A stretch of 64,000 nucleotides of DNA, from positions 18,947-82,946 of the forward strand of contig JBAXUB010000001.1 of the NCBI GenBank assembly GCA_037129895.1, written 5' to 3'. The stretch is from Candidatus Tayloriibacteriota bacterium. GTDB lineage: Bacteria; Patescibacteriota; Minisyncoccia; Phycocordibacterales; PALSA-1337. Both the position numbers and the translations under genes were made by a program. Shown here one piece after another: positions 36,384 to 46,130 of this stretch (its first letter is position 1; each line of letters opens with the position of its first letter). A model generated the notes under the pieces. The model did not search any database. It had not been told where the DNA came from and worked only from the letters and a program-made list of their open reading frames with translations.

Positions 36384-36523
36384 ATGTACTCCTTTGAGCT
36401 ACTCTAGGCGCATCCTAGAAAGACTCTAAACTGGGCATTTGCCCGCTGGTTCGAGCTGAAGTGCCAAACCTAGCAGTTTTGAATCTTTATGTATTATACA
36501 CCTCTTATAGTGTATTGTCAAGC

Positions 36524-36598
36524 TGGGTGACTAATGGGATTCGAACCCATACTGCGGCTTTCACAGAGCCGAGTGCTAACCATTACACCATAGCCACC
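36524..36598 (-). tRNA. tRNA-His (GTG) with the extra 5' G
   Basis: GGTGGCTATGGTGTAATGGTTAGCAC-TCGGCTCTGTGAAAGCCG-...TGGGTTCGAATCCCA; anticodon loop CTGTGAA. Confidence 0.9.
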
Positions 36599-36627
36599 AT
36601 ATACCCCAAACCTTTACCTACACCAAA

Positions 36628-37179
36628 CTACTCATAAGTCGGGGACTCCTCATTTATACCAGATTTATGGTTAGTAAGTCGAGCCATGGCATAGAACAAC
36701 GAAGAAAGCCTGTTCATGAACGCCAGTGTCTCCTTACCAACTTTTATCTCCCCCTTCTCCTCTCCCGCCACTATTCTACGCTCTGCCTTGCGTGCCATCG
36801 TACGTGAAATATCTAACATTGCAGCCATCTCTGTGCCACCAGAAACAAAAAACGTTTTTATTGGTGGCATCGCTTTCTCCATAGCATCAATCCATGTTTC
36901 CATCTTTTTGACCTTATTTCCATCGATCGTTTTCTCGGCACCAGCTACTTCTGCTTGGACGATGAATAGGCCATTCTGAGCCCAATCGATCATTTGCTCA
37001 ATTTTCATTCCATCCACTTTCCATCTGAACGATTTTGACCTGACCTTGACCATACCTAGAAAAGAATTGACCTCGTCCAAAGTTCCCAAAGCTTCGGCTG
37101 TCATAGAATTCTTGGACATTCTCTGATCACAACCAAATTTCTTTGTTTTTCCATCATCGCCTTTTCTCGTGTATAACAT
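36628..37179 (-). CDS. ATP:cob(I)alamin adenosyltransferase, PduO type
   Basis: MLYTRKGDDGKT... N-terminus typical of PduO/MMAB. Confidence 0.7.
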   Translation of the reverse strand: MLYTRKGDDGKTKKFGCDQRMSKNSMTAEALGTLDEVNSFLGMVKVRSKSFRWKVDGMKIEQMIDWAQNGLFIVQAEVAGAEKTIDGNKVKKMETWIDAMEKAMPPIKTFFVSGGTEMAAMLDISRTMARKAERRIVAGEEKGEIKVGKETLAFMNRLSSLFYAMARLTNHKSGINEESPTYE

Positions 37180-37180
37180 G

Positions 37181-37265
37181 TGCGCGAGAGAGGACTTGAA
37201 CCTCCAAGCCCATAAGGGCACATCCACCTCAAGGATGCGTGTCTGCCAATTTCACCACTCGCGCG
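37181..37265 (-). tRNA. tRNA-Leu (GAG), class II with long variable arm
   Basis: GCGCGAGTGGTGAAATTGGCAGACACGCATCCTTGAGGTGGATG...GGTTCAAGTCC...CTCGCGCA. Confidence 0.9.
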
Positions 37266-37282
37266 TCTTTTTGTCAACTACA

Positions 37283-37957
37283 TTAACCCTCAAGACTCTT
37301 TAACGTTCTTACTATAGCTAATATAGCTTCAAATTTCAACTTCTTTCTAGTTAAATACAGAATCTCTCCACCCATGTATAAATGAGTCATAATCTTTTCC
37401 GCTTCACTTTTAGCGTATTTTAATTGGAAACATGAACTATTTTTGCTTTTTGTAACATGACCTTTGACGTTGATGCGATTCAACAGTTCCCATCTTATCC
37501 AACTTAGAAACACTGGACTTGCCGAACAAAATCCTAAATACCAAAGGAACGATACTTTCCACCGCCTATCATAATATGAATGTATATAACCATCTCCATC
37601 GAATACACCACGAAGAAAATGAAAGAAGTACTCCGAGGGTATCGCTATCTCTTTTAATACTTTAGACTTCGCAGGGCCAATACCAATCTGAAGTAGGAAC
37701 TTAACAAAATTTACGTCGCCAATTTGGATCCGATAAGTGTGACTGAACTTATAACCACTATAATTGTGACCAATGTTGCTGTGGATATTCAAACATCTCA
37801 TAATGTTTCTTATTTGTTCGAAATCCTTTGAGACAAAAGATACATGCCTCCTATCTCCATATACACACCCATCTGTAACAAATAGTCCGATAGCATATGC
37901 AAAATTTGCTGACCACTCGATTTTTACTTTTCCTTTTGGTTTTGGTCCTCTTTTCAT
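37283..37957 (-). CDS. Free-standing two-motif LAGLIDADG homing endonuclease, directly 5' of tRNA-Leu
   Basis: Motif 1 FAYAIGLFVTDGCV; motif 2 FLRGVFDGDGYI. Confidence 0.85.
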   Translation of the reverse strand: MKRGPKPKGKVKIEWSANFAYAIGLFVTDGCVYGDRRHVSFVSKDFEQIRNIMRCLNIHSNIGHNYSGYKFSHTYRIQIGDVNFVKFLLQIGIGPAKSKVLKEIAIPSEYFFHFLRGVFDGDGYIHSYYDRRWKVSFLWYLGFCSASPVFLSWIRWELLNRINVKGHVTKSKNSSCFQLKYAKSEAEKIMTHLYMGGEILYLTRKKLKFEAILAIVRTLKSLEG

Positions 37958-38062
37958 AATGTTTTGTTAATCAATTATTAACTTTATGTACTCAAAAAAC
38001 AGGCCCTATTGGCTCTGTCTTTTGTTATTATTGAATTTTCTTGTCGTATCGGGAGGAACTTG

Positions 38063-38503
38063 TTATTTCTTCCCCTCTTCTACAGTTTCTTTCTTTTCTT
38101 CTATAACCGGAGCTACACCATCTGTACTAACAACCTTCTCCTCCCTAACCGCCATGATGCGACGCATCTGGTGACGAATCTCCTTGGCAGCCTTCCTGCG
38201 GATGAAGTATAGTTTACCGCGGCGAACCTTAGACCTACGAATAGTCTCTATCTCATCGATCATAGGAGAATACAATGGGAATATGCGCTCTACTCCGACA
38301 CCATCAATAACTTTTCTAACAGTGAAAGTAGCGCCAGCTTGGTGGCCATGTTTGGTAGCCAAAACTAGACCTTCGAATGCCTGAAGACGGAATTTACCCT
38401 TGTCTTCCTCAATCTTCTGCCATACACGAACGAGATCACCTGAACGAATGTCCATTTTCTCGCGTTCAGCTATATTTGCAGTTGTAATTACCTTGGTAGC
38501 CAT
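38063..38503 (-). CDS. rplS: 50S ribosomal protein L19
   Basis: ...FEGLVLA...FTVRKV.DGVGVERIFPLYSP... with a lysine-rich C-terminal tail. Confidence 0.9.
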   Translation of the reverse strand: MATKVITTANIAEREKMDIRSGDLVRVWQKIEEDKGKFRLQAFEGLVLATKHGHQAGATFTVRKVIDGVGVERIFPLYSPMIDEIETIRRSKVRRGKLYFIRRKAAKEIRHQMRRIMAVREEKVVSTDGVAPVIEEKKETVEEGKK

Positions 38504-38518
38504 AGTGGGAATACATTA

Positions 38519-39277
38519 TCACAAGGGCAGCTTTAAATCAAATTTTGAAACCGCTTTCTTGAAATCGGTAGGTAATGGGGCCAAGACTTTGATCTTCTTA
38601 CCTTTTGTATCGGTAAACTCTATAGAATATGAATGCAGGGCCAATCTCTCGAAACCAAGGGCCATAAGTCGTCTCGGTGCGTACAAACTATCACCTACCA
38701 CTGGATGATTGATAGCGCTGAAATGCACACGTATCTGATGAGTCCTGCCCGTCTTTGGTTCTACTTCAACAAGTGAGAACTTCTCATTATCAGTTTCAAA
38801 ATTCACAATACGCGTCCAATAAGTTTGAGCTTCTCTGATCTCCCCTCTCGCTGTTGGGTATGCTGACCACTTTCTAAAATCACTATTACTCCTCCCTATC
38901 GGTCTGTCGATCGTTCCGAACTCTTCTTTCATCTCTCCCCAAACAAAAGCCAGATATTTCTTGGCAATTGTTCTATCTTTGAATTGCTGTTTCAGACTCG
39001 CGTGGCCCGTTTTTGTTTTTGCAATGATGATCACTCCGGAAGTTTCTCTATCCAATCGATGAACTATACCCGCTCTGTTCAATGGATTACCTTCAGAATC
39101 ATTCATCGGATCTCCAACATTCTTGGCCTTTGGATAATTTTCCAATACCCAATCAGCGAGAAATGGCCCCTCGTTCTTGCCATCAGAATGCACCATTAGA
39201 CCGGCTGGTTTACTGACAACCAGACAGTCCTTGTCCTCATATAGGACTTTGATGCTATTTAGCAGTTTCTTGCTCAT
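38519..39277 (-). CDS. RluA-family pseudouridine synthase (start at internal Met MSKKLL)
   Basis: LVVSKPAGLMVH and HRLDRETSGVIIIAKT catalytic Asp motif. Confidence 0.85.
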   Translation of the reverse strand: MSKKLLNSIKVLYEDKDCLVVSKPAGLMVHSDGKNEGPFLADWVLENYPKAKNVGDPMNDSEGNPLNRAGIVHRLDRETSGVIIIAKTKTGHASLKQQFKDRTIAKKYLAFVWGEMKEEFGTIDRPIGRSNSDFRKWSAYPTARGEIREAQTYWTRIVNFETDNEKFSLVEVEPKTGRTHQIRVHFSAINHPVVGDSLYAPRRLMALGFERLALHSYSIEFTDTKGKKIKVLAPLPTDFKKAVSKFDLKLPL

Positions 39278-39385
39278 ATCATGAATATACGCTAATCTAT
39301 TAGCGTATACAAGCGCACTTAGCTGTCTTGGTAGGTAAAGACCAAACCTAGTGGTGCACAGAGTATATTTAAAAACAAAACACAT

Positions 39386-39458
39386 GCGCCCTTAGCTCAG
39401 TTGGTAGAGCGACCCCTTTACACGGGGAAGGTCAGGAGTTCGAATCTCTTAGGGCGCA
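39386..39458 (+). tRNA. tRNA-Val (TAC)
   Basis: GCGCCCTTAGCTCAGTTGGTAGAGC-GACCCCTTTACACGGGG-...GGAGTTCGAATCTCT...AGGGCGCA. Confidence 0.9.
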
Positions 39459-39513
39459 CAATTCTATATTTGTCTGCTATAATTCATAGTACTTATTATA
39501 AGTACCTATAATT

Positions 39514-40620
39514 ATGAATACAAAAAAATCACTTTCAGTTGTCACAGTAATTGCTGCTTCATTAGTTCTAACACTGATCACTACGAAACCAGCAACGGCA
39601 CAACTAGGACTCCCTTCTATTTTACCTATCGTACCGATATCATTTTCATTCCAGTCAAATCTACAGTACGGCGAAACAAAATACCCGGATGTGAATTATC
39701 TGCAGACATTTTTGAATCAGGATTCCAGAACAGCTGTTAGTGATGCTGGCCCAGGATCGATGAATGAATTAACTTCATATTTCGGCCAAAAGACAAAAGA
39801 AGCTGTAATGAGATTCCAACAACTTTTTGCCGCCGACATACTAGCACCGGCCCATCTAACTCAACCAACCGGAATATTCGGACCACTTTCTAGAGCAAAG
39901 GCCAATAGTATACTATCTAGTCAACGAAGTGACCTGACGAATATTCAACTACCTCTAGGTATCAGTACCCCATTTTCATCTGGTGAATCTTTCGGTCAAG
40001 CACGACCTATACTATCTCCATTCAATGTTGGAACTGCTTCAGGATCAAGTTCCGGCTCAGTTGGTGGCATATCATCCCCTATTTCAGGCCTTACTGGCTC
40101 AACAGGCGGCACCTCTGGTAGTAGTGGTTCATCTGGAGGTGTTGGAGCTGGCATAGCAGGTGGCCTAGCAGGAGGAGTGATCGGTGGTGCAGCTGGAGGA
40201 TTGACTGGTGGTCTCACTGGCGGCCTCACAGGGAGCGGATCGACAGGTGGAGTCACTGATGCAGGAAATGACCCGGCCTCACAAGATCTATTTGATTATC
40301 AAACTGGCGGAAGCAGTAGTGGAACTAGTGGCGGAATGACTTCATATTTTGGAGGGCGAATAACAAGGGTAACATATTGTTGCACTGGTGATATCGCTCT
40401 CGATATTATGCCCGTAGGTAACGGTGGACAGCTTACACTTCTATTCCAACAGGGACAAAGTAAACTTTATGAGAGCTACAATATTTTCATTTCTGGAGCC
40501 AATGTTCTAGGTAGCTATTCACAAGGTGGAGGCGGATCGTGTGAGACACTCGATTCTGAGTGTGAATCAACAGTGAGCACACGCGGCACGATAAAAATGA
40601 TCGGTACTTCAGCTATATAA
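39514..40620 (+). CDS. Secreted Gly/Ser-rich repetitive protein (signal peptide, GGLTGG repeats, Cys-containing C-terminal domain)
   Basis: Signal TKPATAQ. Low-complexity G/S repeats. The antisense Pro-rich ORF is a mirror artifact. Confidence 0.6.
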   Translation: MNTKKSLSVVTVIAASLVLTLITTKPATAQLGLPSILPIVPISFSFQSNLQYGETKYPDVNYLQTFLNQDSRTAVSDAGPGSMNELTSYFGQKTKEAVMRFQQLFAADILAPAHLTQPTGIFGPLSRAKANSILSSQRSDLTNIQLPLGISTPFSSGESFGQARPILSPFNVGTASGSSSGSVGGISSPISGLTGSTGGTSGSSGSSGGVGAGIAGGLAGGVIGGAAGGLTGGLTGGLTGSGSTGGVTDAGNDPASQDLFDYQTGGSSSGTSGGMTSYFGGRITRVTYCCTGDIALDIMPVGNGGQLTLLFQQGQSKLYESYNIFISGANVLGSYSQGGGGSCETLDSECESTVSTRGTIKMIGTSAI

Positions 40621-40627
40621 GAATTAT

Positions 40628-40665
40628 TGTCCCCTCGGTTGGAATCGAACCAACATCAACGGCTT
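40628..40665 (-). repeat. 38-bp direct duplicate of the 3' half of tRNA-Arg(TCT), an att-like scar
   Basis: tgtcccctcggttggaatcgaaccaacatcaacggctt is identical to 40694..40731. Confidence 0.8.
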
Positions 40666-40695
40666 CATGTTCCTGTAGGATATCTAACGTATTTG

Positions 40696-40767
40696 TCCCC
40701 TCGGTTGGAATCGAACCAACATCAACGGCTTAGAAGTCCGCTGTTCTATCCATTGAACTACAAGGGG
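40696..40767 (-). tRNA. tRNA-Arg (TCT); the anticodon stem has one A-G mismatch at 31-39
   Basis: CCCCTTGTAGTTCAATGGATAGAAC-AGCGGACTTCTAAGCCGT-TGAT-GTTGGTTCGATTCCAAC-CGAGGGGA. Confidence 0.75.
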
Positions 40768-40820
40768 ATAGCACACCAACAAGTTAACACAAATCGGAGC
40801 GACAGACCAATTTCTGGACA

Positions 40821-41150
40821 TCATCTGGACGGATCACCAACGATTACTGGATCACTAACTATCGAGGTCCGGTTGATCTTGTGTTTTACTTGTAGAGCAA
40901 CAGCCTCATCCAATGCACTCTGTTCGAATGGTAATTTTGCTACTGCGGATTGTATAGAAGCGTCATTCACACCAGAAATCGTAGTCTGATATATCGAGTA
41001 ATCAAAGAATACAAGTCCAATCGTCAATAAACATGTCCCAACAACTATGAACACCCAATCGATGTGCGGATCTCTACTCAGATAATGCTTGTTTGTTGGA
41101 ATTTTCATCATATTGATTTTACACCACTTAGATTGAAACCGAGTGACCAC
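40821..41150 (-). CDS. Small membrane protein, last gene of the pilM-N-O cluster (possible PilP-like)
   Basis: Single TM VFIVVGTCLLTIGLVFF; operon position after the pilO-like gene. Confidence 0.4.
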   Translation of the reverse strand: MVTRFQSKWCKINMMKIPTNKHYLSRDPHIDWVFIVVGTCLLTIGLVFFDYSIYQTTISGVNDASIQSAVAKLPFEQSALDEAVALQVKHKINRTSIVSDPVIVGDPSR

Positions 41151-41653
41151 ATGGTTGATGACTTACCATCAGCAGGACCTATCGCATCGAAACGAACCCC
41201 GTCGATAAATACTTTATACGCCATATTTTCTGCCAACATCAACGTCTTGAAAACCGATGACCATGATCCTTGAGCTGATACCCTCGCACTCATATAACCA
41301 TTGACTGCCAAATCCCCTTCCGCTGATGCCATATTATCTATCGAACTTATCGCTATCGTACTGCCAGATGCACTCCCTAGAGATTCCAGACTTTCGATAA
41401 AAGAGATGGAGGCATCAGGCTGTATGAATTCTTGATAGAGTTGATTCCAGCTATTTTCGACATTATCATTCAGATTCTTGATCTTTGCTGCTTCATTTTG
41501 CATAGCTATCAATGACCCGGATTCTGCTCTCGCATTCACCGTATCCTGTGTCATACTCGTGATCGCAAACTTCATATAGGAAAATATTGAAGCGACCAAG
41601 ATAGTAACTGTTATAGAGAGAGTCAAGAGAAAGATATGATGAGTATTTTTCAT
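41108..41653 (-). CDS. pilO: Type IV pilus assembly protein PilO-like
   Basis: N-terminal TM plus coiled-coil periplasmic domain, after pilN. Confidence 0.55.
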   Translation of the reverse strand: MKNTHHIFLLTLSITVTILVASIFSYMKFAITSMTQDTVNARAESGSLIAMQNEAAKIKNLNDNVENSWNQLYQEFIQPDASISFIESLESLGSASGSTIAISSIDNMASAEGDLAVNGYMSARVSAQGSWSSVFKTLMLAENMAYKVFIDGVRFDAIGPADGKSSTMWSLGFNLSGVKSI

Positions 41654-42198
41654 GGTGTTTGATCGTTAGTTACCGAAAGAGAAAATGAAATATTCTTGCT
41701 CTTTGCCAACAATGAAACTGGAACATCTACTTTATTACCCAATTTGCCGAGGATCAGCTTGTTCTTCAATGCCAACAATTCCTCGCGATTGGGTGACATA
41801 CCGACGATAGTCGTAACCACGGTTGTTGGAGAAGTTCTCGCTACAGATATAGAAGTGATCGTAGACTTACCTCTGGCATCTAGAATACCTTTCACTATAC
41901 TCGAATACTCCGTCTTACCTTTCGGTGAGCTTGCCAAGATCTTGATGATATTTGCCTTCTTCAATAAGTCAGACTTGGAATTACTCTTCCCGCTTTTTTC
42001 TGCTGCCGCCTTGAGAGGTGCGAGCTCTGCATATGCAGCACTCTTGTCCAAAGCAGCATGAATGAACGATGGCAACAGTAACACTGCTCCTATTATGAAT
42101 GCGGTAGAAATCATGAAGAGAAATACGATGAAAGCACGTATCCTATATTCATGACGCAGTGACTTCCTCAATGTTATTGGTATCAATGTGTGTCTCAT
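41650..42198 (-). CDS. pilN: Type IV pilus assembly protein PilN-like
   Basis: Short cytoplasmic N-terminus, one TM, periplasmic domain, directly downstream of pilM. Confidence 0.55.
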   Translation of the reverse strand: MRHTLIPITLRKSLRHEYRIRAFIVFLFMISTAFIIGAVLLLPSFIHAALDKSAAYAELAPLKAAAEKSGKSNSKSDLLKKANIIKILASSPKGKTEYSSIVKGILDARGKSTITSISVARTSPTTVVTTIVGMSPNREELLALKNKLILGKLGNKVDVPVSLLAKSKNISFSLSVTNDQTP

Positions 42199-42202
42199 AT
42201 AT

Positions 42203-43138
42203 TTATAGATCCAATGCCAGACCAGCTACTACGATGTAATCTAGCGACTCGACTTTTGGTATATTCGGTGTGTACGAATCTAGATTCAATGAATTCTGCC
42301 AAGTGTTAGCGATACTCACAGGACACTTGTCTTTCTCATTGAGAGAAGCAGCTATCTGATCTTCGAACTCCGGTGCCCTACTGCCAGCAAGCAAGATCTC
42401 GTCTATGTGTCCCCCGGGTCTACTAGACCAGTATGTTAGTGAATGGTTTATATTTTGCGCCAATGAATTACCATCGCCATGACCGACCGTAGAAGTGAAA
42501 CAGACTACGCCTGCAGAAACTATATATATACCTATCTTACTTTTCATTACATGTACAACCATGGACGTCTTCTTCGGATCACAACTCAATGCCGCTCTGG
42601 CGATAGACTTTGGTGCAACTTCGAAAGCGACTGGGAAGACACCGGCGCTCTGTAGCAACGAGATCTGCTTTTCCACATAAGTACGCGGAACGACTGATAC
42701 ACTTGCGCGCAGTATTCCTTCGGTGACTTCAATCGGCATGAGATCAAAATAGAAAACGGCATCTTTCGCCAACAATGGAACGTTCTCTTCCAACTTGAAT
42801 TCGATGTTCTGCGCAATATCCTTCTCACTCTCTCCTACAACATCTGTCTGGAATAGATAAGCCTTTTCTTCTGGGATAGAGACACTGACATAATTGAGAT
42901 TATTCTTTTCATCAAATTTCTTCAATAGATCGACGAACACCACTTCGTTCTTTATATCACCACCCAATATAGTATCGTCCGGCAATAATACCTGATCATA
43001 TTTACTGATGATTTGGCCACGGGAACTCGGAGAATATTGTAGACAACGTATAGCGTCATCAGATATCTCCAATCCGGCAAATCTCATGGACATATATTTT
43101 GGTGGAGGAAACGCCTTGAAGAACAATGACTGATGCAT
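42203..43138 (-). CDS. pilM: Type IV pilus assembly ATPase-like protein PilM (actin/FtsA fold)
   Basis: About 300 aa in a PilM/FtsA-like arrangement, followed by pilN/pilO-like genes. Confidence 0.65.
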   Translation of the reverse strand: MHQSLFFKAFPPPKYMSMRFAGLEISDDAIRCLQYSPSSRGQIISKYDQVLLPDDTILGGDIKNEVVFVDLLKKFDEKNNLNYVSVSIPEEKAYLFQTDVVGESEKDIAQNIEFKLEENVPLLAKDAVFYFDLMPIEVTEGILRASVSVVPRTYVEKQISLLQSAGVFPVAFEVAPKSIARAALSCDPKKTSMVVHVMKSKIGIYIVSAGVVCFTSTVGHGDGNSLAQNINHSLTYWSSRPGGHIDEILLAGSRAPEFEDQIAASLNEKDKCPVSIANTWQNSLNLDSYTPNIPKVESLDYIVVAGLALDL

Positions 43139-43195
43139 GTCACATATTATACAGCAGAGATCAATTATTGGATATTGGAAAACTAATTGTACTTG

Positions 43196-43813
43196 CTACA
43201 CCTTTTTCAGAGATTTCAAGTATTCTTGAACGACCTTATAGACTGCAGGAGCAGCTGAGATAATGATGATAACCAATACTAGCGGGATGATATACCTGTC
43301 TGGATTTGGGACGACTGATCCAAAGACGTAACCAATGAGCAACATTCCCCAAGTCCATATGAATCCGCCGATCAGATTATATGTGAAAAAAGTCTTGTAT
43401 TTCATATTCCCTATTCCAGCGACGATAGGTGCGAATGTACGAATAGCTGGGATGAATCTCGCGATGATGATAGTTTTTCCTCCATGCTTTTCATAGAATT
43501 CCTGCGCACGTATGATGTATTTCTTATTGAAAAATAGAGAGTCCTCTTTATTGAATATCGCTGGCCCAACTTTCTTGCCAAATGCATAGCCAGTACTATC
43601 ACCGAGCACTGCTGCGATAAATGTAAATATGAGTAATATGATTATCGGCAAATGCCCTTGTGAAGCGAGGTAACCAGCAGTAACCAACAATGAATCACCT
43701 GGAAAGAAAAATCCAAAGAATGCACCAGTTTCCAAATATATAATAGCGATAACACCGATCACACCGAGTGTCGATATTAGAAATTGTGGATTTAGTAAGT
43801 CGGTTATATTCAT
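43196..43813 (-). CDS. DedA/SNARE-associated family membrane protein
   Basis: ...GDSLLVTAGYLAS...ARFIPAIRTFAPIVAG... pattern. Confidence 0.75.
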   Translation of the reverse strand: MNITDLLNPQFLISTLGVIGVIAIIYLETGAFFGFFFPGDSLLVTAGYLASQGHLPIIILLIFTFIAAVLGDSTGYAFGKKVGPAIFNKEDSLFFNKKYIIRAQEFYEKHGGKTIIIARFIPAIRTFAPIVAGIGNMKYKTFFTYNLIGGFIWTWGMLLIGYVFGSVVPNPDRYIIPLVLVIIIISAAPAVYKVVQEYLKSLKKV

Positions 43814-43820
43814 ACTTTAT

Positions 43821-44267
43821 CTATGCAGCTATAGTTCCTGCAGGAATCGTATCGTTCGGTTCAAGTAGAGAAAAACCGCCTTCTGGAGTTGATACAGCAA
43901 AGAGCATGCCATTACTATCAGAACCTTTGATCTTACGAGGTTCTAGATTTGTAACAAACATGCAAGTCTTGCCGACGAGGACAGCAGGATCTGGATATCG
44001 TAAGGCTATTCCAGAGACGATTTGCCTCGGAACATTTACGTACTCTTTGATAACCTCAGTTGTCGGGGTCACGGTATTTGCCTCTGTAGGACTTACCAAC
44101 ACCTTATCCACAGGAGCTGATACCTCACCCTCTTTCTTTACTTCAACTTTTTCGCCAAAATCAACCATGAGTTTCAGTAGTTTATCTGTATCAGGGATTT
44201 TCTCAGCTGATAATATTTTACCAGCCCGAATCTCTACTTTCTTGAATTCGTCATATGAAATAGACAT
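43821..44267 (-). CDS. Stand-alone tRNA-binding domain protein (CsaA/Trbp111/MetRS C-terminal type OB fold)
   Basis: FKKVEIRAGKILSAEKIPDTDKLLKLMVDFGE...GMLFA pattern of the EMAP/tRNA-binding domain. Confidence 0.7.
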   Translation of the reverse strand: MSISYDEFKKVEIRAGKILSAEKIPDTDKLLKLMVDFGEKVEVKKEGEVSAPVDKVLVSPTEANTVTPTTEVIKEYVNVPRQIVSGIALRYPDPAVLVGKTCMFVTNLEPRKIKGSDSNGMLFAVSTPEGGFSLLEPNDTIPAGTIAA

Positions 44268-44299
44268 GTTTTTATTAAAATAATAATATAAATAAATTC

Positions 44300-44683
44300 T
44301 TACTGATTCTTACTACGATCTAGATAGCTCTGCAGGATGATAGCCGCGGCCGAAGCATCCGTGAGAGCCGTCTTGCCTTGCCAACGCTCAGCCTGAATAC
44401 TGCTCATGAATTCTGCCTCTAGGTATACAGTGAAGCCTCGTGCTTCGAGCTCATCTTTCAAGTCCATGCTGTCCAACAATATCTCGTTTGGTTCACCTTT
44501 GTAATTACGTGACTCACCCATCACGATCTCCTTTGTTTCGTTATCAATGGCGATCTTTTCGATCTCTTCTAATAGGGTTGGTGTATTCAAAATAACCGAA
44601 ACTGGTAAGGCAAACTCGCGTTTCTCATCTGAAACAGCTACCCCCACCCTCTTTGATCCGTAATCGATACCTAGTATACGCAT
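44300..44683 (-). CDS. ruvX: Putative pre-16S rRNA nuclease / Holliday junction resolvase-like protein YqgF/RuvX
   Basis: MRILGIDYGSKRVGVAVSD. Confidence 0.85.
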   Translation of the reverse strand: MRILGIDYGSKRVGVAVSDEKREFALPVSVILNTPTLLEEIEKIAIDNETKEIVMGESRNYKGEPNEILLDSMDLKDELEARGFTVYLEAEFMSSIQAERWQGKTALTDASAAAIILQSYLDRSKNQ

Positions 44684-44725
44684 GAATAGAGCATACCATG
44701 TTAAGTAAAATGCTATAATAGAAGT

Positions 44726-45748
44726 ATGCTTCAGCAGTCTAATGATAAAAGAGTTAAATTTCAACCGGGTGAACAAGCAAGGTTTCTCGTGCGTGTAATC
44801 AATAAACTGTGCATTACGCAGACAACTCTTGCAACCATGGCGGGCATAAGTGTTCGACGTATTTCCGATTGGAAAGCAGAAAAAAGTACGATGCCATTAT
44901 CAGTTGTGAATTTACTATCAAAAAAATCTGGACTCAACTTACCGCACGGTATTCACTACATAGATCGATATGCCCATACGAGAGCGGCCGGAAAAAAAGG
45001 TGGAAAGGCAACTATAGAGAAATACCACGGTTTCCCCGACCCAAATAGGACACGCCTTTCTGCATGGAAAAAATGGTGGGAAGAATCTGGACGAGAAAAA
45101 ACTATCACCGCATCAACAAAGCCTGCGAGAATCCCGAATGATTCTTCCAACCTGGCGGAATTTACAGGAATAATGATGGGAGATGGCGGAATTTCAAAAT
45201 ACCAAATAAGTGTGACTCTAAACAAAATTGATGACTATGACTATTCATTGTTTGTACGTAACCTTATGAATAACCTTTTCCAAGTGGTTCCTTCGTTAGT
45301 CAAAAAACTAGATGAAAAAGCACTCATTTTGAATATATCACGACTTCAATTGGTCAGATTTTGTAATGATCACCTCAATCTACCAACTGGACACAAGATT
45401 CGTCATGGATTATATGTTCCTTCGTGGATAATGAAGAAAACCGTCTATAAAAGATCATTTCTCCGCGGACTTTTTGATACTGATGGTTGTGTAGTTATAG
45501 AAAAACATAAGGTCGACAAAGTGGTGTACTCTTATGCTCGCCTAAACTTCACGTCATATTGTCCAATATTATCGAAGTCCACATTCCAAATATTGACCGA
45601 GCTTGGATATACACCGAGGGTGCGTAGAAAAGAAAGATCAATACAACTTGAAAATTATGACGAAATATGTGATTATTTCAGAGTTGTAGGAACGCACAAT
45701 CCTAAACACACGGAACGTCTGAGGAAAGTCGGAATATTCCGTTCGTAA
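44726..45748 (+). CDS. LAGLIDADG homing endonuclease with an N-terminal HTH, directly 5' of tRNA-Ser
   Basis: Motif 1 LAEFTGIMMGDGGI; motif 2 FLRGLFDTDGCVVI; XRE-like HTH near the N-terminus. Confidence 0.85.
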   Translation: MLQQSNDKRVKFQPGEQARFLVRVINKLCITQTTLATMAGISVRRISDWKAEKSTMPLSVVNLLSKKSGLNLPHGIHYIDRYAHTRAAGKKGGKATIEKYHGFPDPNRTRLSAWKKWWEESGREKTITASTKPARIPNDSSNLAEFTGIMMGDGGISKYQISVTLNKIDDYDYSLFVRNLMNNLFQVVPSLVKKLDEKALILNISRLQLVRFCNDHLNLPTGHKIRHGLYVPSWIMKKTVYKRSFLRGLFDTDGCVVIEKHKVDKVVYSYARLNFTSYCPILSKSTFQILTELGYTPRVRRKERSIQLENYDEICDYFRVVGTHNPKHTERLRKVGIFRS

Positions 45749-45757
45749 GAATCCAAA

Positions 45758-45844
45758 GGAGGAGTGGCAGAGTGGTCGATTGCACCGCTCTTGAAAAGCG
45801 GAACCTGGGAAACTGGGTCGTGAGTTCGAATCTCACCTCCTCCG
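45758..45844 (+). tRNA. tRNA-Ser (TGA), class II
   Basis: GGAGGAGTGGCAGAGTGGTCGATTGCA-CCGCTCTTGAAAAGCGG-long variable arm-GTGAGTTCGAATCTCAC-CTCCTCCG. Confidence 0.9.
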
Positions 45845-46130
45845 CAAATGATCTAAAGAAATCTCTAATAGTCCTTATAACAGGACATCGATTTTTTGAC
45901 CATTACTGAAACCAGAAATGCACAATTCCCGCCATATTTAGGATGAATACGAAAAACGTGAGCATGCAGAACATGATCAGGCCGCCGAAGGTGAATACTT
46001 CTAATACGAATTCTTTCATATATTAATAAAAGCATACAATCAATATTTTAACTACTCTGAGGACTCCCTACTATTAACTTATAAACATCGTCACGGTACA
46101 TTCCCCTGCGAGGAATGCTATAATTCTCAC

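Follow-up and report, generated by a model that had tools for sequence, protein, structure and literature searches.

A complete tRNA gene followed almost immediately by a second copy of its own 3' part raises the question of how the copy arose and why it has been kept. Such a pair occurs at a tRNA-Arg(UCU) gene in the window analyzed here (the whole stretch of 64,000 nucleotides), and a preliminary description had read it as the attL/attR arrangement of a site-specific integrase, probably the scar of an excised or deleted element or else a minimal duplication. The window is ordinary housekeeping chromosome from a Patescibacteria (Saccharibacteria-like) genome of approximately 42% GC and encodes aminoacyl-tRNA synthetases, DNA polymerase I, RuvABC, folate and thymidylate enzymes, and murein enzymes. 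Of the window's open reading frames (ORFs), 40 were scanned singly (10 neighboring and 30 further ORFs), and in none was a domain of an integrase or recombinase detected.

The tRNA-Arg(UCU) gene and its downstream copy

The functional tRNA-Arg(UCU) gene lies on the minus strand at 40696 to 40767 and matches Rfam RF00005 over its full length (65.5 bits); ARAGORN places tRNA-Arg(tct) at 40695 to 40767 on the same strand. The gene measures 72 nt to the discriminator and has no encoded CCA. A repeat search identified a direct repeat of 39 nt, 100% identical between its two copies. Copy 1, within the live gene (40693 to 40731, minus strand), comprises tRNA nt 37 to 73 and the 3-nt trailer CAA, and copy 2 (40627 to 40665, minus strand) is a displaced tRNA 3' fragment that has no 5' half and is not a gene. 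The shared block thus extends from nt 37, the sixth and second-last base of the anticodon loop, through the discriminator and into a CAA that is not part of the tRNA. The copies start 66 nt apart and are separated by a 27-bp spacer (40666 to 40692, minus strand). The preliminary description had reported a perfect 38-bp copy running from the 3' strand of the anticodon stem to the acceptor end; a perfect direct repeat of the gene's own 3' part it is, but its length is 39 nt and it starts in the anticodon loop. The 30-bp separation given there is correct when counted from the discriminator, the gap between the repeats themselves being 27 bp.

Read on the minus strand, the gene ends in ...CCGAGGGGA and is followed by the trailer CAA, the spacer ATACGTTAGATATCCTACAGGAACATG, and then AAGCCGTTGATGTTGGTTCGATTCCAACCGAGGGGA-CAA, so that gene-side repeat, spacer, and fragment together occupy 105 bp, or 1.6 units of 66. 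Beyond the fragment come TAATTC and, in reverse complement, the stop codon belonging to a convergent 368-amino-acid ORF (39514 to 40620, plus strand; weak PG_binding_1 similarity), which ends 6 bp from copy 2 and forms the right-hand boundary of a variable segment between tRNA-Val and tRNA-Arg. On the other side, gene calls and tblastn synteny place a 96-amino-acid ORF, p96 (40821 to 41111, minus strand), as the last gene of a conserved block, RuvX-tRNA_bind-VTT-PilM-p182-p181-p96, which precedes tRNA-Arg on the same strand in all relatives recovered. When the window was searched with the 39-mer, allowing up to 3 mismatches, only these two sites were found, with none expected (100 shuffles).

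The complete upstream copy is the sole tRNA of the pair according to both ARAGORN and Rfam, which confirms the earlier reading of an intact gene followed by a nonfunctional fragment of its own 3' part and answers which copy is functional. Rfam assigns copy 2 to no family, be it tRNA or any other, even at an E value of ≤5, and ARAGORN is silent on it as well; that the duplicate might be part of a different annotated RNA was an objection that the preliminary description had foreseen. A second functional tRNA was rejected given that neither program finds a full cloverleaf in copy 2; the 27-nt spacer is too short for a 5' half and shows no significant similarity to one. Also rejected were a split or intron-containing tRNA (the locus has an intact gene, and for an "intron" of 66 nt no bacterial splicing route is known) and a CRISPR-like array (the repeat occurs only twice and consists of the tRNA itself, and the scanned ORFs contain no Cas domains).

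The gene also has an A-G pair at positions 31 and 39, at the bottom of the anticodon stem. This oddity had been remarked on at the outset and is real, being flagged as a noncanonical pair in the Rfam alignment of the identical gene from relative L007 (below). It is invariant in all relatives recovered, including those with other T stems, and because it is present in every relative examined, the A31-G39 pair is a lineage trait and neither a sequence error nor a sign of decay.

Inheritance of the fragment and its resemblance to the adjacent gene

Approximately 25 related loci, designated here by L numbers, were recovered through homologue look-ups of the flanking proteins and one metagenome scan with the tRNA 3' half; a scan of genome contigs with the neighboring protein yielded only two distant loci, both without tRNA-Arg(UCU), and three look-ups led to paralogous contexts in which the locus is missing. 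L007 to L011 have a PsiU protein 96% identical to that of the window and carry, in order, the gene, a 27-nt spacer (26/27 identical), the fragment (36/39), a 156-bp insert of approximately 63% GC, and a 21-bp third copy. The fragment of L007 has three adjacent changes in the variable loop (GAT to CTG). Its third partial copy (TTGTCCCCTCGGTTGGAATCG on the plus strand) extends from C56 of the T loop to the 3' end plus CAA, beside the stop codon, and the GC-rich insert and this 21-bp fragment are nested within the 39-bp-type fragment. All 72 nucleotides of the gene are the same in L007, L012, L015, L016, L022, L023, and L038.

The agreement between the window and L007 is best judged against the divergence of their surroundings. 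Third-codon-position identity is 0.52 to 0.55 in the pilus genes and 0.70 to 0.73 in the last 56 to 106 codons of the convergent ORF, and intergenic identity ranges from 0.65 to 0.85. Spacer and fragment together are identical at 62 of 66 positions; the probability of at least 62 identical positions is 1.7e-6 if neutral identity is 0.7 and approximately 0.02 if it is 0.85. For the spacer alone (26/27), P is approximately 8e-4 at a neutral identity of 0.7, and the excess over other intergenic DNA (0.82 to 0.85) is only marginal (P of approximately 0.02). Because L007 has the same spacer despite near-saturated synonymous divergence, and because recognizable leftovers persist at 64 to 65% PsiU identity (L015 and L023), the window structure is to be regarded, from these comparisons, as inherited and not as a fresh excision scar. 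The proposal of a recently excised element accordingly fails, as L007 has the same structure at third-codon-position identities of 0.52 to 0.73.

Divergence from L007 is uneven over window positions 36400 to 46000 as a whole, with third-codon-position identities of 0.97 for CobAT, 0.91 for the LAGLIDADG ORF, 0.80 for L19, 0.70 for PsiU, 0.62 for the PG-binding ORF, and 0.52 to 0.55 for the pilus genes. This mosaic would imply frequent recombination with tracts of approximately 1 kilobase.

A more distant relative, L034 (PsiU approximately 75% identical to that of the window; contig at 2.3x coverage), has the gene, a 41-nt spacer, and a fragment, AGC-GTTGATGGAGGTTCGATTCCTCCCGAGGGGAC. In gene and fragment alike, its T stem reads GGAGG/CCTCC where the window has GTTGG/CCAAC. 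The fragment thus has all 4 of the 4 lineage-specific T-stem changes in common with its gene, with 35/36 identity otherwise. The spacers of L034 and the window have no detectable similarity, and the last 8 nt of the L034 spacer (GAGCGGAC) equal tRNA nt 25 to 32. Downstream of the L034 fragment (1699 to 2060) lies a gene for a DUF4383 membrane protein with a TGA at codon 10, which may be an error, given the 2.3x coverage, or mark a pseudogene; the window and L007 lack this gene, and their fragment lies directly beside the convergent ORF instead.

The fragment is therefore inherited across lineages and follows the sequence of its own gene: the two agree at 39/39 positions in the window and at 36/39 in L007, and all four T-stem changes of the L034 gene recur in its fragment. 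In a shuffle test of the spacers, only the window-L007 and window-L015 pairs were significantly alike; the L034 copy carries its partner's lineage-specific changes while the spacers differ, as in concerted evolution. Short-tract gene conversion, from the live gene to the fragment 66 bp away, would be the simplest cause of this tracking, a pattern drawn from three lineages of which L034 may have acquired its fragment independently.

Other relatives retain less. In L015 (PsiU 64%), AGATCTCC-ACAGGGACATAAAAGCCGTAGA sits 20 to 50 nt past the gene, and the trailer can be aligned with the last part of the window spacer and the adjoining 11 nt at the fragment start (score of 28 versus 14.4 ± 2.2; 0/1,000 shuffles). 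Against the window spacer alone the z score is 4.9, the last 19 nt of that spacer being homologous to the L015 trailer, which diverges after the fragment start into a hairpin and a T run; the next 3 kb encode a methyltransferase, a MazF toxin, and an IS3 transposase. L023 (PsiU 65%) has CGGTTGATG (tRNA nt 40 to 48, 8/9) joined to a TATAAT −10 box, a match whose significance is our own estimate. L016, L017, and L019 (PsiU approximately 78%) have the gene, a 68-nt GC-rich trailer, and a 19- to 21-nt copy of the stretch from the T loop to the 3' end, after which comes the TGGTATAAT promoter of the DUF4383 gene. The whole of the L016 trailer has its homologue in the initial 65 nt of the L007 insert (z score of 22; 29/30 at the start), and in the central hairpin three base pairs differ between the two with both sides changed (alignment read by eye). 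Since the DNA past the L016 partial copy is homologous to that past the L034 fragment (z score of 11), the two copies occupy the same position, before the DUF4383 promoter. The gene stands bare, with no fragment, in L012, L038, and L039, and in L036, L037, and L013 an insertion sequence (IS), whose inverted ends measure 28 bp and whose target duplication measures 8 bp, lies 28 nt past tRNA-Arg. The fragment is consequently not universally needed: L007 carries a mutated version, L015 and L023 retain eroded remnants, and L012 and L038 lack it altogether.

Several other small sequence features came to light at these loci. The IS-like insertion past tRNA-Arg (L036, 4560 to 4719; L037, 4330 to 4377; L013, 6915 to 6965) is a feature of one lineage, has the terminal inverted repeat GGGGCATATCCCCGCACACCCTAATTTG and the 8-bp target duplication AATTGACT, and was pieced together from same-sample contigs that end in the repeat. 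Small, hairpin-rich repeats of approximately 63% GC are scattered between genes in relatives of 40 to 45% GC (L007, 7167 to 7322; L016, 1122 to 1190 and 446 to 530; L023, 2200 to 2360 and 11895 to 12052; L036, 216 to 319), and none was found in the window. In the copy past tRNA-Arg, the hairpin still pairs in both L007 and L016 despite changes on both of its sides, and the copy terminates in an inverted version of the T-arm 3' strand. A trailer motif, CACTWCTTCG-hairpin-CTTCGAAGTGCARGC, follows several different tRNA genes (L015, 5136 to 5321; L022, 217 to 267; L012, 115 to 154) and was not seen after the window tRNAs; it may act as a common signal for the 3' processing of tRNAs or for termination.

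Other tRNA genes of the window likewise have companions. A degenerate, internally deleted 47-nt copy of tRNA-Val(TAC), GCGCACTTAGCTGTCTTGGTAGGTAAAGACC...CCTAGTGGTGCAC (39313 to 39359, plus strand), lies 27 nt upstream of tRNA-Val (39386 to 39459), on the other side of the same variable segment. Its 5' fragment (GCGCCCTTAGCTGTYTTGGTAG..., with GTY for CAG at nt 13 to 15) is also found in L007, L034, and L013, its 3' acceptor-like part in the window, L007, and L012, and the copy is better conserved than the intergenic DNA around it. Of two free-standing LAGLIDADG_3 ORFs, one (224 amino acids; 37283 to 37957, minus strand) adjoins tRNA-Leu (37180 to 37264) and is not in L007; the other (340 amino acids; 44726 to 45748, plus strand) ends 10 nt before tRNA-Ser (45758 to 45845). 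The latter is 95% identical to its L007 counterpart in DNA, with a third-codon-position identity of 0.91 versus 0.52 to 0.6 in neighboring genes, which suggests that homing-endonuclease-like genes spread recently beside tRNA genes.

Origin of the duplication and rival explanations

On balance, we take copy 2 to be a dead, inherited fragment that marks an old partial duplication on the 3' side of the gene; most likely this began as an att-type duplication whose cargo was lost, and conversion would since have kept it like the gene. As to the origin itself, we infer approximately equal chances for an integrase and for a duplication through replication or recombination. Integrase-type insertion with subsequent loss of cargo is ranked first because the fragment borders lie in both loops that integrases use, because such fragments are documented products of integration, and because the segment downstream is variable. 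According to Williams (2002), as cited in 10.1101/2020.11.02.365908, the anticodon loop and the T loop are two symmetric sublocations of tyrosine integrases; identity begins at nt 37 in the window and, for the 21-bp fragment of L007 and L016, at C56, the third base of the T loop. A restored tRNA gene and its displaced fragment mark the ends of genomic islands according to Islander (PMC4383910), and 44-bp tRNA-fragment repeats flank the PYG1 island of Pyrococcus yayanosii (PMC9897764). Downstream of the gene, L015 has the methyltransferase, MazF, and IS3 genes, L036, L037, and L013 have the IS, and L007 and L016 have the GC-rich insert, which marks the 3' side of tRNA-Arg(UCU) as a long-lived hot spot for insertion and deletion in this Saccharibacteria-like clade.

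Under this preferred reading, recombination of the tyrosine-integrase type would have placed DNA into the tRNA-Arg gene of an ancestor of the clade, the insert supplying a replacement 3' part and the original 3' part being displaced downstream. The cargo would later have been deleted to a few tens of base pairs, and short-tract conversion from the selected gene would keep the fragment identical or nearly so. The homology between gene and fragment (39 bp, 66 bp apart) would also permit clean loss of the fragment by recombination, so that it could be cleared in some lineages and erode in others. A second, similar event may have introduced the GC-rich structured insert with its 21-bp duplicate of the T loop to the 3' end, nested in the fragment in L007, abutting the gene in L016, and lost from the window. 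All states could then be derived by pop-outs from an L007-like order of gene, 27-nt spacer, copy 2, GC-rich insert, and copy 3: recombination of copy 2 with copy 3 would give the window arrangement, recombination of the gene with copy 2 that of L016, and both together that of L012. The attP of such an element would carry ...ACAGGRACAT(AA)/AAGCCGTTGATG..., and a matching element would be expected to show the junction pattern ACAGGRACAT-N(0,2)-AAGCCGTTRATG.

The attL/attR interpretation of the preliminary description thus stands in part. Its geometry fits integrases that target tRNA genes, with a direct repeat built from the 3' portion of the tRNA, of which one copy belongs to the complete gene, and with empty single-copy sites in L012, L038, and L039. 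What does not fit is the 27-bp spacer, with no bracketed element carrying an integrase gene in the window. That description had proposed looking in relatives for an element at this site; the empty sites of L012 and L038 were found, but no occupied site among the approximately 25 loci, nor, within their available flanks, any distant second copy of the tRNA 3' end. Five scans of IMG/VR (with the 39-mer, a 20-nt core of the spacer, a 20-mer from the T loop to the 3' end, and anticodon-arm patterns) returned nothing relevant and no attP; the sole hits, to a relaxed pattern, were tRNA arrays of phages with no relation to the locus. When the L007 GC-rich insert was compared with phages and plasmids by BLAST, nothing matched, and the window locus, compared with phages, showed generic tRNA similarity only. 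Two further facts speak against an integrase: with a start at nt 37 instead of nt 32, the 7-nt anticodon loop, the canonical overlap, is not shared in full (the 21-bp fragment, too, starts 2 nt within the T loop), and two lineages are both down to spacers of 27 and 41 nt, which would be odd for independent deletions of cargo. The 26/27 conservation of the spacer with L007 is the one fact that gene conversion cannot account for; possible causes are constraint on the pre-tRNA trailer and a recent exchange by recombination over a short stretch.

Alternatively, the duplication may have arisen locally with no part played by an integrase. Replication slippage, template switching, or unequal crossing-over, favored by anticodon and T arms that form hairpins, may have placed a copy of the gene's 3' part a few tens of base pairs downstream, and the same conversion and erosion would have followed. 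Replication-based duplication at these arms is a serious rival, though we rate a local origin of this kind as the less likely of the two. It is in keeping with the lack of any recombinase or element in the window ORFs and related loci and with a tiny spacer of host-like composition, and the pseudo-tRNA-Val piece beside its parent gene shows that partial tRNA duplicates arise and persist in the clade. Moreover, L034, L015, and L013 have a spacer whose end is similar to the tRNA's own anticodon-stem 5' strand (P of 0.02 to 0.05 by right-anchored alignment), as would be expected if the original duplicate began near nt 26; in the window, however, comparison of the spacer with the tRNA 5' half gives a P of 0.29. 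A complete tandem tRNA pseudogene is not supported, the shuffling tests being borderline in L034, L015, and L013 and null in the window. A tandem origin also requires two full units (A-B-A-B with a period of 66), whereas only 1.6 are present, and the DNA past copy 2 is unlike the spacer in both the window and L007 (approximately 6/27, by eye). Because the spacer is not repeated past copy 2, where the convergent ORF ends, plain tandem duplication is disfavored. That both fragment borders fall in loops used by integrases likewise tells against local duplication.

We think it unlikely that spacer and fragment form a selected cis element, whether for pre-tRNA 3' processing or termination, as a 3' structure of the convergent mRNA, as a decoy att site, or as a spare for repair; the fragment probably does nothing for translation. 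Such selection would be consistent with the far better conservation of spacer and fragment relative to L007 than of synonymous sites, with the match between fragment and gene in three lineages, with the placement of the L007 GC-rich insert in the fragment and not in the gene, and with the L015 remnant, a hairpin followed by a T run. However, the fragment is lost or eroded in syntenic L012, L038, L016, L022, L023, and L015, L007 tolerates three changes in it, and the spacers of different lineages are mostly unlike. Folding of trailer plus fragment RNA from four lineages gave no stable or conserved fold (z scores of +0.7 to −1.1), a search for promoter and terminator motifs found none, and Rfam offers no match. 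The conservation, moreover, exceeds that of other intergenic DNA only marginally (P of approximately 0.02 at 0.85). If it nevertheless reflected selection instead of conversion, the locus would represent a new kind of tRNA-linked cis element, which the evidence does not require.

Slightly less probable still is the more specific idea of a selected spare or decoy 3' half, held in register with the gene by recombination. If this were true, the spare or decoy half could absorb insertions aimed at the tRNA, as with the GC-rich insert of L007, and could restore the gene after damage. Paired stem changes could build up off-line and be copied to the gene at once, as for GGAGG/CCTCC in L034. Together with the pseudo-tRNA-Val, the fragment would then point to clade-wide partial tRNA copies beside tRNA genes in the reduced genomes of Patescibacteria.

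A recent or still active att pair, from which a minimal element was just excised or deleted in the window strain, is highly improbable. The 39/39 identity and att-like geometry would suit it, but the same 27-bp spacer occurs in a lineage near synonymous saturation, clean excision by an integrase leaves one copy, a 66-bp unit can neither encode nor circularize as an element, and no element was found in the relatives or in viral data.

An assembly or sequencing artefact, for which nothing specific speaks beyond the source being a metagenome assembly, can for practical purposes be set aside: the window lies within a 137-kb MEGAHIT k=141 contig (ERZ27300156) whose k-mers span the entire 105-bp structure, the stored copy of the contig carries the identical sequence, and the assemblies of five other samples independently contain homologous structures. 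For SRR7053653, itself an independent sample, the Logan unitigs (k=31) that carry the flanking genes (L002 and L004) stop exactly one base outside the outer repeat borders and, given the behavior of de Bruijn graphs, such breaks indicate a true repeat of at least 31 bp there; unitigs L010, L011, and L035 end inside the tRNA and are uninformative. The sequence error that the preliminary description had named as a possible refutation is therefore not the explanation, the k=141 contig and the second-sample unitigs being in agreement.

Significance and comparison with known systems

A fragment of a tRNA gene beside its gene is a known kind of structure; unusual here are the minimal spacing, the long persistence, and the covariation with the gene. 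For annotation, the locus offers a clean example of a tRNA fragment that should not be called a gene, and it illustrates that a gene and fragment pair need not signal a present or recent mobile element. More generally, it suggests that, even in a genome as small and streamlined as this one, a 39-bp fragment can keep full identity with its parent gene through a long period of divergence.

Three known systems offer points of comparison. The pair resembles integrase attL/attR islands in combining a complete gene with a displaced 3' copy in direct orientation, in the start of the fragment within the anticodon loop (window) or T loop (L007 and L016), and in the empty sites and variable downstream segment of relatives. 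It differs from them in that 27 bp separate the copies where a known case has kilobases and an integrase gene, in that no element or attP was detected and identity falls short of the whole loop, and in being inherited across deeply diverged lineages with a fragment that covaries with the gene.

The distal repeats of the E. coli tyrT operon are units of 178 bp, each opening with the final 19 nt of tRNA-Tyr. There, too, short 3'-terminal tRNA pieces recur close behind the gene in the absence of a mobile element, and recombination between such repeats alters copy number. The tyrT operon, however, contains a small ORF and several tandem units of full period; the locus described here has a single, longer extra copy that starts in the anticodon loop and no second spacer.

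Gene conversion homogenizes rRNA operons, tuf genes, and duplicated mitochondrial control regions. Although the tract here is only 39 bp and one partner is a nonfunctional fragment, the pair resembles the concerted evolution of rRNA operons and tuf genes in that the copy follows its partner's substitutions while the unique flanks diverge.
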